From positions 105,239 through 169,238 of the forward strand of contig CAWDJC010000024.1 in assembly GCA_963802525.1 (NCBI GenBank): 64,000 bases of DNA. Direction: 5' to 3'. How positions within the stretch are numbered: the first letter of the stretch is position 1; each line of letters begins with the position of its first letter. Positions 3,642 to 6,600 of the stretch are shown here, piece by piece. The DNA comes from an uncultured Actinomycetota bacterium. Lineage in GTDB: Bacteria > Actinomycetota > Actinomycetes > Mycobacteriales > Mycobacteriaceae. The position numbers were made by a program.

Positions 3642-6600
3642 TAGTCATTTGGTGCGAAAGGCCCCGGGTTCGCCCGGGGCTTTTTCGTGCGTTTCGCAAG
3701 CACACCCGCCACAGGAGTACCGCGCTGGAGGCATCACTCGATCCGCGAATTTGATAGCGCATGTGCTAGCGCATTTGAAAGTCGCCTATCGGTTGCCAGC
3801 CTGCCGCAGACGGCCAAGCTTCCTACGACTTCAAAGGAGAAGCGGGTGGCTTGCTTCCCCGCGGCATTACGCGTGTGATCTTAGGCGGATGGGCGGCACG
3901 ACTTGCCAACTAATTGGCGCGAAGATTGGTGGAATGCGATGGGTGAACGAGGCGGTGTCGAAACCAGCACCATGCCCGCGGCGCCTCACCACCCTGCCCG
4001 CCTCCGGAGGGGATCGTCCACACCAAGATCCCCCAACTACCACCCATCCGGACACTTTTTGCGGTGTCCACGCGCAGTAGCTGCATAAGCAGAAGTTTAT
4101 TCGGACTGTCGCGCAGCGAAAGTCAGTCAGGCGGTCTCAGCCACATCCGCCACAGCAGCAGTGCGGGAGTTCCACCACTTGGTCCGCAATCGCGATATCG
4201 CATGTCCTATCGCCCGTCTAGGGCCGCCATCTCATGAACGATGGCTTCTGTGATTCTCGACCTGTTGTTCTCGTGCATATTTGACAAGTTCGGCCAGCAA
4301 CGTTGTCAGGTCCTGTTGCAACTTTGAGTCTTCCAACACAGGCACATGACGGGGTAGATCGTCGGCGATGATGTCTACAAGCTGTGCTAGCTGAGGATCA
4401 CGCAGGTCTAGCATTGGAATATTGTTTTCGACGAGTTCAGTGAGTTTCTCTTTGGTAGGCGCGTCGGGTACACGGTTGGCCAGATATTCCAGCACATAGA
4501 AGGTAGCCCATGAACTGGCAGCCCAATTGTGCTTCGAGAAGAAGATATCTCCAGCCATATCAGCCGTCTCCTACGATGAATACGTGAGGATTTCTTAGTC
4601 CCTCAACGAATGTACGGACGATCGAACGCTGTGCCGCCGTGAATTGTGAAACATCGACAGGCACGTAAACCGCCTTGGCCAGGTGATCTTGTATCTTCTC
4701 TTGGAGATTTGGCCATTGAGCGTCGAAAAAGCGCGCCGGGAAATTTCCAACTGCATCGTATGTCTCGCCAGTAGCGGGGTTAATCCAGTCGGCTTCCGGA
4801 TGGAGGCTCCGCACAAGGTCTACCCCTCTTTCAGCCTCAACTCGTAGCCCCGTCTCGGCTTCGCTCATACGAAACCCTCCGTTTGCCGGATCCCTTCCGA
4901 GGTCGTGGGCATGGGGTGTGGTCATGTCGAATGGATGGTGCTGCGGTTCCTCCAATCCTGGGTGCCCCGGGGGCTGTTCTGGTGCAGGTTGTGCCCAGTC
5001 CGGCACTAGACGTGTCCCCTGCGCCGGGACCGTTTCTGCTTTGCCTAGCTTCCCCTCTAGTGCAGCCTTTCGGGCATTCAGTTCGTCGGCTTCTCTGTTA
5101 TAGGAAGCCACCGCGCCCGCATCGTTTAGAGGGGGCCGCCAAGAATTGTGGTCGCGGATCTCTGCCTTCAATTGCTCGTACGCGGCCCGGGCCTGCTCAG
5201 GCGTCATCCGTGTCAGGTCCGTCGGTACGGGAGCTGGTGGGCTTTGTTTGAAGGTGTGGTTGTCCACCGCGTGGACGTGGTTGTCCTTTGGCGGTGCGCC
5301 GGGTGACGGGGTTTGCGGGAAGGTGGCGTGGATTCCACCAATCGCGCCGGCGGTTTTGGCGGCGACTTGCTCATCGAGCGCGACCAGTTGCGCGGCGCGT
5401 TGGTGGATATCAACGGCGAAGGTTTGTGCCAGGGCTTGCCGGCCGGCCCGCTGCGCCGCCGGACCACCGGTCGAGCGGTCGGTGACCGAAAGGTCTTCGC
5501 CCACGTCGAACCCCGCCGCACGGGTGTCCTCCACTGCATATCGCACCCTCGAGCGGGCCGCATACAGATCCGAGGCGCCGCTGCGGGCAACTTTGGCCGC
5601 CGCTTGCAGCTGGTCGGCTACCGCGCTGGTGGTCATCATGTCGGAATGAGTCGCGGTCCGCAGTGCGTCGGCGGCTTTGCCTTGCCAATTGATCGAGAGT
5701 GCGTCTCGCCAGACCTCGTTAGCCACGGCGTAACTGCGCCCGCCGACGGCTTCCCAGTGGTCGGCCGCGTCGGTGAGATGTTCGGTGGGCCAGGCCAATA
5801 GCTGGGAGAGGCTGGGAATCCCTGCGACCGCTGCCATTGCTACACGCTGGTCACCGGATGGGCCACAGCGGCCATCTCGTTGGCAGACTCAGCTTCATTT
5901 GCGAGGTAGCCGGCGTCGGCTTCGCCGACGTGGGTGGCGTGGGTGCCTACCCGGGTGGCCAGCGCCGCGGTGAACGCCATGGCATCGGCGTGGGCGGCGG
6001 TAACCGCGGCGGCGCTGGCCTGACACGATAAGCCGAGTCTCGCCGGAGCCAGCGTCGCATTTAGCTCGTCAGCTGACGCGACCCACCGGGTGGCCATCGC
6101 CCGCACACCAGCGGTGTCCACGCGCAGTAGCTGCATAAGCGGAAGTTTATTCGGACTGTCGCGCAGCGAAAGTCAGTCAGGCGGTCCCAGCCACATCCGC
6201 CACATGAGTACCGCGCGGGGACCACCACTCAATTCCAGAAAGTGATAGCGCATGTGCTAGCGCATTTGAAAGTCGCCTATTGGTGCGCGCGCGACGCGAT
6301 CGCCTCGCGTCGGGAGCCGTCACTACACTGGCCACCGTGCTTATCGGTTCGCATGTCCACAACGACGACCCCCTGGCTGCCGCGCAGGCAGACGGCGCCG
6401 ACGTGGTGCAATTCTTCCTCGGTAACCCGCAGAGCTGGAAGAAGCCGAAGCCGCGGGACGACGCCGAGACGCTGAAGGCATCGGCCGTGCCGCTGTACGT
6501 CCACGCGCCGTACCTCATCAACGTGGCATCGGCCAACAACCGCATCCGCATCCCGTCGCGAAAGATCCTGCAGGACACGTGCGACGCGGCCTCGGCGATC

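Follow-up and report, generated by a model that had tools for sequence, protein, structure and literature searches.

A probable chromosomal WXG100-type toxin-immunity cassette with a predicted CdiA-CT E479-family nuclease tip in a mycobacterial genome

Described polymorphic toxins and the rpoC-end cassette

A WXG100-type polymorphic toxin architecture was predicted for actinobacteria in 2012 (Zhang et al., PMC3482391), and three-gene polymorphic toxin-immunity cassettes were described in prophages of Mycobacterium abscessus in 2021 (Dedrick et al., PMC8092301). The locus considered here belongs to this known cassette type and is not surprising in kind. It lies in a 64,000-nucleotide (nt) stretch of contig CAWDJC010000024.1 (positions 105,239 to 169,238, forward strand; assembly GCA_963802525.1, an uncultured member of the Mycobacteriaceae), the whole of which is called the window below, where three minus-strand open reading frames (ORFs) are sandwiched by rpoC and the endonuclease IV gene end. 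These genes probably form a chromosomal toxin-immunity cassette of the WXG100 type, served by an ESX (type VIIa secretion system, T7SSa) machine, carried on a ~2.6-kb rpoC-end island and working through the five steps set out below.

The M. abscessus prophage cassettes share its gene order, running from a small partner of ESX/WXG type through a ~45-kDa toxin, variable at its C-terminus, to a small immunity gene; in prophiGD43A-1, gp118 stands ahead of gp117 and the small gene gp116 follows. The window cassette differs in being chromosomal, at rpoC/end and not at a prophage attachment junction, and in its host, whose close relatives are slow growers such as M. intracellulare and M. kubicae. Its immunity family is also different, gp116 belonging to DUF7161. 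Neither 'tRNase' nor 'CdiA' occurs in the text of PMC8092301, so a toxin tip of the E479 type goes unmentioned there.

The sole structurally characterised relative of the tip belongs to a CDI system (for contact-dependent growth inhibition), CdiA-CT/CdiI of Burkholderia pseudomallei E479. The two share the toxin fold, the active-site residues, including a His for Lys, and an adjacent downstream immunity gene, but tip identity is ~21% and the immunity proteins are unrelated by every test run. The E479 toxin cleaves tRNA in the T-loop in a Mg2+-dependent manner, and by analogy Mg2+-dependent tRNA cleavage would be expected of the window tip.

The Firmicute LXG toxins of type VIIb systems (T7SSb), which act with Lap targeting factors (S. 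intermedius Tel, S. aureus EsaD/EsaG, the B. subtilis tRNase YxiD), follow the same logic: a helical N-terminus with small helical partners as secretion signal, a polymorphic tip and downstream immunity. They have two or three partner genes against one here and use T7SSb instead of the presumed T7SSa of a diderm mycobacterium, and their antibacterial function is experimentally shown, against a putative one in the mycobacterial group. The window toxin has no Pfam match to the LXG domain (PF04740) at E <= 1 and is not of that family. M. tuberculosis CpnT/TNT is likewise an ESX-dependent toxin of a mycobacterium that bears its enzyme as a C-terminal tip and has an antidote, IFT, in the cytosol, but it has an N-terminal outer-membrane channel, an NAD+ glycohydrolase tip and the macrophage as target. 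The nearest evidence for antagonism comes from a 2026 preprint on an Esx-dependent defence of Schaalia against Saccharibacteria by a non-enzymatic effector (PMC13622651).

In the proposed mechanism, the partner, through its YxxxE motif, and the WxG domain of the toxin would pair as a helical bundle that serves as a composite type VII secretion signal, and the pair would be exported by one of the four or more ESX machines of the genome. The C-terminal 120 amino acids (aa) of the toxin would then act as a metal-dependent PD-(D/E)XK nuclease, likely cutting tRNA and arresting translation in the recipient. The 108-aa protein, predicted to be translationally coupled to the toxin, would bind and block the nuclease in the producer and its kin. 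Finally, the low-GC tip and immunity module would be swapped by recombination downstream of the motif AVDNHTFKQ. The parts of the cassette are as follows.

5840..6136, minus strand: partner, a putative targeting factor of 98 aa, helical (ORF; homologue alignment)
4560..5837, minus strand: toxin ORF, 425 aa (ORF listing)
5283..5837, minus strand: toxin residues 1-185, N-terminal WXG-type helical trafficking domain (WxG, prophage homology)
4926..5282, minus strand: toxin residues 186-304, junction and linker (alignment divergence after AVDNHTFKQ)
4563..4925, minus strand: toxin residues 305-425, predicted PD-(D/E)XK nuclease tip of the CdiA-CT E479 tRNase family (Pfam, profile, fold)
4232..4558, minus strand: predicted cognate immunity gene, 108 aa (ORF; homologues downstream of tip)
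6137..6284, minus strand: cassette leader/promoter region, with a repeat copy (copy C) at 6185-6284 (repeat comparison)

A previous reading of this DNA, made from the sequence alone, had listed the same three genes (98, 425 and 108 aa), and all three ORFs are present and co-directional; the range it assigned, 4232-5837, covers the toxin and immunity genes and leaves the partner just outside. The 2-bp spacing that it gave holds between the partner stop and the toxin ATG (2 nt), while the immunity ATG lies 1 nt past the toxin stop, with AGGAG ahead of it. Its observation that the toxin tip and the last gene are AT-richer is borne out by a GC content of 0.690 in the partner, 0.667 in toxin residues 1-200, 0.628 in residues 201-304, 0.554 in the tip and 0.495 in the immunity gene, against 0.668 for the genome. 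GC at third codon positions is 0.51-0.78 in the cassette versus 0.87-0.90 in rpoC and end.

Each of the three ORFs is intact and has a conserved start. Full-length toxin orthologues (64-75% identity) occur in other mycobacteria and in metagenomes, two of them (68% and 64%) at the same locus, and orthologous cassettes occupy the rpoC-end site in Mycobacterium sp. Marseille-P9652 and Mycobacterium sp. 050134. The many homologues of each protein and the recurrence of the gene order in other genomes put the reality of the cassette far beyond chance. Neither NCBIfam nor PADLOC returned a match, Rfam has none within 3600-6400, and a consensus promoter scan gave nothing useful.

The nuclease tip and its immunity gene

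The tip matches Pfam PF18664 (CdiA_C_tRNase) over toxin residues 369-415 with 30 bits, above the cut-off of 26.5. Residues 290-425, searched against 1.84 billion representative proteins, have 303 relatives, in proteins of up to 929 aa; the domain ends at the protein C-terminus in 104 of the 156 relatives examined and lies at most 12 residues from it in all but one. The domains of 46 relatives were combined in a profile of 125 positions, 42 of these members matching PF18664 individually (best E 2.6e-12). Against the PDB this profile finds 5J4A_A, with E 7e-10 and 99 of 125 positions covered (profile positions 17-115 against chain residues 38-149), the next match standing at E 0.38. Chain 5J4A_A is the tRNA nuclease CdiA-CT of B. 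pseudomallei E479. Single-sequence PDB searches with the toxin and the partner gave no match, and family profiles alone succeeded. An AlphaFold2 model of the tip built on the 46-domain alignment has a predicted local distance difference test score (pLDDT) of 96.8, and a Foldseek search of the PDB with it again returns 5J4A_A (E 6.7e-5, probability 1.00, template modelling (TM) scores 0.67/0.69, root-mean-square deviation 2.8 A, identity ~21%) as the sole match with E <= 0.001. The remaining PD-(D/E)XK nucleases fall below significance, the weak ones including restriction and repair nucleases.

The active site of the E479 toxin, as listed in the review from which it is taken here, comprises E204, D229, D243, H275 and D285, the His standing where a catalytic Lys is usual (PMC9086364). 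In the profile alignment, E326, D350, D361 and H385 of the toxin stand opposite E204, D229, D243 and H275. D395 is aligned with position 285, where the deposited 5J4A chain has Ala, presumably an inactivating substitution. E326, D361 and H385 are invariant in all three tip alignments, and D350 and D395 invariant or nearly so.

4860-4862 (E326), 4788-4790 (D350), 4755-4757 (D361), 4683-4685 (H385) and 4653-4655 (D395), minus strand: predicted catalytic residues (alignment)

Pfam, profile, fold and active-site residues thus agree on every computable feature of the E479-type family, and the tip is, as judged from sequence and predicted model, a member of the CdiA-CT E479 tRNase family that most likely cleaves tRNA. 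The sequence-only reading had proposed a likeness between the C-terminal ~110 aa and E479 CdiA-CT, and the Pfam model by which it proposed to check this, the profile match to 5J4A_A and the Foldseek match all uphold it; the motifs it quoted (TYDAVGNF, QWPNLQ, DHLAK and VPVDVSQFT) are present in toxin residues 359-400. Existing annotation pipelines already name the tip, by a JGI name on one relative and by precomputed Pfam matches. A weak tblastn match of the tip on another contig of the same genome (C15) was dismissed, having no supporting ORF.

Downstream of the toxin, the 108-aa protein has 15 close relatives, and all of those with an organism name come from Mycobacterium. Most tip loci have an ORF of ~100-115 aa that begins at the toxin stop or no more than a few bases from it, and in 55 of 72 loci (phmmer) or 58 of 72 (jackhmmer), from many genera, the downstream ORF is homologous to the 108-aa protein, as expected from the earlier claim of an adjacent immunity gene. 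The immunity protein co-varies with the toxin subtype: that of Mycobacterium sp. 050134, whose toxin differs mid-domain, is only 41% identical. Moreover, a paralogous cassette in M. fragae has a barnase-type RNase tip followed by a Barstar gene, so that the position downstream of the tip follows the logic of immunity. Taken together, these comparisons support the 108-aa gene as the predicted cognate immunity gene.

Its ancestry is another matter. The small gene had been said to start like the E479 CdiI gene, and the proposed Foldseek check succeeded for the tip only. Chain B of 5J4A (CdiI E479) is not matched at E <= 10 by the single sequence, by a 14-sequence profile or by a 28-sequence actinobacterial profile, and the protein belongs to no Pfam family. 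Its model (pLDDT 92.7) is an alpha/beta fold whose best Foldseek match in the PDB has E 0.79 and TM <= 0.36, with 5j4a_B absent among the 50 matches listed. Homology to CdiI E479 was therefore rejected on sequence, profile and fold. The element order b-b-a-a-b-a-a resembles the b-b-b-a-a-b-a-a-a reported for CdiI E479 (PMC9086364), which is a lead only.

In several genomes the immunity protein carries a C-terminal fusion, seen in Mycobacterium sp. 050134 (2865-3389), M. angelicum (2865-3407) and three further relatives. The fused segment, of ~70 aa, is homologous to the toxin domain's C-terminal half (36% identity, E ~1e-13), with the N-terminal catalytic residues missing; it might act as a decoy or have arisen by recombination.

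Export, target cell and substrate

The N-terminus bears on the presumed route. With the whole toxin as query, more than 500 relatives are found, nearly all of them alike over the first ~200 residues alone and divergent in their C-termini; among the alternative tips on this N-terminus are RNase Sa/barnase (PF00545) and colicin D (PF11429), along with many that have no assignment. The boundary between shared module and variable region is marked in all members examined by AVDNHTFKQ (residues 190-198; 5244-5270), in which, across the N-terminal alignment, K197 never varies and V191, D192, T195 and Q198 hardly do. A helical, proline-rich pre-toxin linker follows, and the position of the motif is analogous to that of the VENN motif of CdiA proteins. 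Within the module W51-Q-G53 (5679-5687) has an invariant W51 and G53, and gp117 of the M. abscessus prophage prophiGD43A-1, annotated "polymorphic toxin protein", shares 37% identity with residues 12-169 (E 2e-13). The module is present in 110 of 151 sampled Mycobacterium genomes, with 1-9 copies each.

The partner has 210 homologues, and every one with an organism name is from Mycobacterium. YxxxD/E is a type VII secretion motif, and in the partner Y77-x-x-x-E81 (5894-5908) is invariant among 21 aligned sequences, 10 of which have a weak Pfam T7SS_ESX_EspC match; weak PE-protein similarity is seen too. Aligned by hhalign, the partner matches prophiGD43A-1 gp118, an "ESX complex protein", from end to end at E 5.6e-4. 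In PHROGs it matches one family only, the unannotated phrog_38108 (E 5e-4). The N-terminal trafficking module, the YxxxE partner and the actinobacterial immunity family paired with E479-type tips are three large families for which no curated model exists.

Four eccB (PF05108) loci of the genome exceed the Pfam cut-off. One eccB, ~61 kb past the window end (C24:230791-232139), is split into two frames of 362 and 191 aa, either by a frameshift in one ESX locus or by an assembly error. From the WxG and YxxxE motifs, the homology to the prophage cassette, the eccB loci and the spread of the module across the genus, we infer on good grounds that the partner-toxin pair is exported by ESX; the N-terminus and upstream partner look like a T7SS substrate pair, as the sequence-only reading had it. 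The toxin is not itself a CdiA, since only the tip is shared and the neighbours are rpoC and end: its sole Pfam match is the C-terminal domain, and its N-terminus is the mycobacterial WxG module. Of the marks of a type V CdiA it shows none, neither a two-partner-secretion N-terminus nor FHA repeats, a VENN pre-toxin motif or cdiB alongside.

Where would the nuclease act? The distribution of the tip is informative here. A scan with the patterns TYDAVGNF and [FY]FD[SAQ]QWx[NQ]L, which favours near relatives and would miss proteobacterial members, found 73 genomic loci encoding the tip, almost all in Actinomycetota: many Micromonospora, then Catellatospora, Actinoplanes, Kribbella, Nonomuraea, Cellulomonas, Amycolatopsis, Rhodococcus and five Mycobacterium species. 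Among 36 full-length actinobacterial tip proteins, 35 of which match PF18664, the N-termini are WXG100_2 in 14, WXG100 in 8, PT-TG in 4 and RHS in 3, with T7SS_signal (2), PrsW (2) and ALF (1) rarer. The tip and immunity genes lie below their flanks in GC in most hosts examined, as expected for a mobile module, and the sharing of tips among type V, VI and VII secretion systems is a known rule for polymorphic toxins (PMC3482391). Going by these loci and their mostly WXG100-type N-termini, this is a tip common among type VII toxins of Actinomycetota and not specifically a Gram-negative one, so that the picture of a Gram-negative warhead grafted onto an ESX substrate was an over-reading.

The tip and immunity pair also occurs in two records titled as non-actinobacterial, 'Jannaschia sp. 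R86511' and a metagenome-assembled genome of 'Candidatus Melainabacteria'. The former has a GC of 72-78%, unusually high for Jannaschia, and is possibly mislabelled or mis-binned.

The ecology and architectures of the tip family favour, by analogy, a bacterial competitor as the target, and a role in interbacterial competition is plausible. Put in full, that the cassette encodes an antibacterial tRNase delivered by ESX into competing mycobacteria is a tentative proposal. Several points weigh against the mechanism as a whole. No route is known for a T7SSa substrate across the outer membrane of another mycobacterium, and the literature searched yields no mycobacterial ESX toxin shown to kill or act on bacteria. 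Pfam models for WXG100 and EspC reach threshold neither on the N-terminal domain nor on the partner. The N-terminal profile has weak PDB matches only, and the two that make biological sense, EsxA (3zbh) and the M. abscessus ESAT-6-like MAB_3113 (4i0x), are below threshold at E 0.15-0.17, with the WxG in register in both. The single-protein match to PF18664 spans just model positions 60-106, or 47 of 116. PD-(D/E)XK CdiA-CTs include DNases, so the fold does not fix the substrate. Profile and fold searches give the 108-aa protein no relative of known structure or function.

The same cassette and export could instead serve against a eukaryotic cell, an amoeba or a macrophage, with the immunity protein protecting the producer before export as IFT does for CpnT/TNT. 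Mycobacterial ESX systems are best known for action on host cells, tRNA is a universal substrate, and the want of a known protein import route across the mycobacterial outer membrane speaks for such a target. The M. abscessus prophage cassettes have also been proposed to act during infection (PMC8092301). The tip and immunity pair, however, is widespread in soil Actinomycetota (Micromonospora, Catellatospora, Actinoplanes), the tip also sits on the RHS and PT-TG architectures typical of interbacterial toxins, and polymorphic tips with matching immunity, such as barnase-barstar, are a signature of conflict between kin or competitors (PMC3482391). A eukaryotic target is thus unlikely, though it is the rival that fares best.

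The substrate raises a separate doubt, for the tip might be a DNase or a general RNase and not a specific tRNase. Its fold is common to the CdiA-CTs with DNase activity from E. coli TA271 and Yersinia YPIII (PMC9086364), its identity to E479 is low, and its weak fold matches are restriction and repair nucleases. Against this, the His-for-Lys exchange that is a hallmark of the E479 tRNase is invariant here (H385), and that tRNase is the only significant match in both sequence and fold, which leaves a DNase or general RNase rather improbable. A module that acts inside its producer, as a non-secreted toxin-antitoxin or abortive-infection system, would suit a tight toxin-antidote pair on a small low-GC island, but a conserved 300-aa N-terminal trafficking module and a dedicated partner would then be pointless, PADLOC finds no match and the N-terminus has homologues annotated as polymorphic toxins of T7SS; the odds on it are very slight. 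Slighter still is the chance of a decaying, non-functional remnant, which the adjoining vestigial leader copy (4061-4134) and the insertion sequence (IS) element in the partner gene of the genome's second cassette might suggest, but which sits badly with three intact ORFs, with retained catalytic residues, WxG and YxxxE, and with the full-length orthologues elsewhere.

With three genes, an assignable nuclease tip and a conserved immunity partner, the cassette is a compact candidate for testing antibacterial delivery by ESX; in the literature searched, no experiment settles whether mycobacterial ESX systems deliver antibacterial enzymes. Were the antibacterial ESX tRNase borne out, it would be, by that literature, the first interbacterial toxin with enzymatic action demonstrated for the T7SSa of a diderm actinobacterium, and would imply an unknown import route across the mycomembrane. 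With the N-terminal module in about three quarters of Mycobacterium genomes, ESX-mediated bacterial antagonism would then be general to the genus.

The island, its repeats and a second cassette

The cassette occupies an insert of ~2.6 kb (3694-6284) bounded by copies of a ~100-nt repeat. The rpoC-end spacing is 91-202 nt in four relatives, the closest ones, 1.1-2.1 kb in six and 7.4 kb in one, and the contigs of three assemblies break exactly at this site. The rpoC-end intergenic site is hypervariable across the genus, and relative to the empty-site relatives the cassette is an insertion. Around it lie the following features.

3..3644, plus strand: rpoC, flanking gene
3694..3793, no strand assigned: copy A of the dispersed repeat, by the rpoC terminator at the left island edge (repeat comparison)
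4061..4234, minus strand: second leader copy, including the repeat copy at 4135-4234 (84% identity to 6111-6284)
6280..7089, plus strand: end (endonuclease IV), flanking gene

Besides copy A, the window holds the repeat at 4135-4234 and 6185-6284 (copy C), and further copies lie at C24:80171, C10:242633, C10:343896, C21:198388, C21:571597, C5:17315, C19:71189, C37:897 and C17:114516; the genome has at least 10 copies of this intergenic repeat. The core reads approximately (G/C)NTAGCGCATGTGNTAGCGC and contains two TAGCGC(A/T) half-sites; the element has no Rfam match. A duplication of the native sequence upstream of end was considered as the source of the flanking repeats and rejected, since the repeat is absent from the empty-site relatives and has at least 10 genomic copies.

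The second leader copy still has 26 nt from the start of a partner gene (4061-4086; ATGCAGCTACTGCGCGTGGACACCGC), followed by unrelated sequence, and is either a vestige of another cassette or a recombination scar. The 270 nt from repeat copy A to this vestigial leader (3794-4060) resemble nothing elsewhere in the genome.

Metagenome contig ERZ25039551 has a near-identical cassette at the same locus, in which frameshifts have joined the partner with the toxin N-terminus, broken up the toxin and cut the immunity gene short. They also split rpoC, which makes errors of long-read assembly the most likely source. One apparent case of a different tip on a 94%-identical N-terminus was rejected, being the same cassette in a metagenome assembly with frameshifts that split rpoC as well.

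A second cassette lies in the same genome on contig C17 (~110948-114517). Its 345-aa toxin has an N-terminus 78% identical to that in the window and an unrelated tip without Pfam match, and a 163-aa gene overlaps the toxin stop. An IS630-like transposase has broken its partner gene, leaving two partly overlapping partner fragments. The dispersed repeat flanks both toxin cassettes of the genome, and it could be an element resembling a miniature inverted-repeat transposable element (MITE-like) or an operator.

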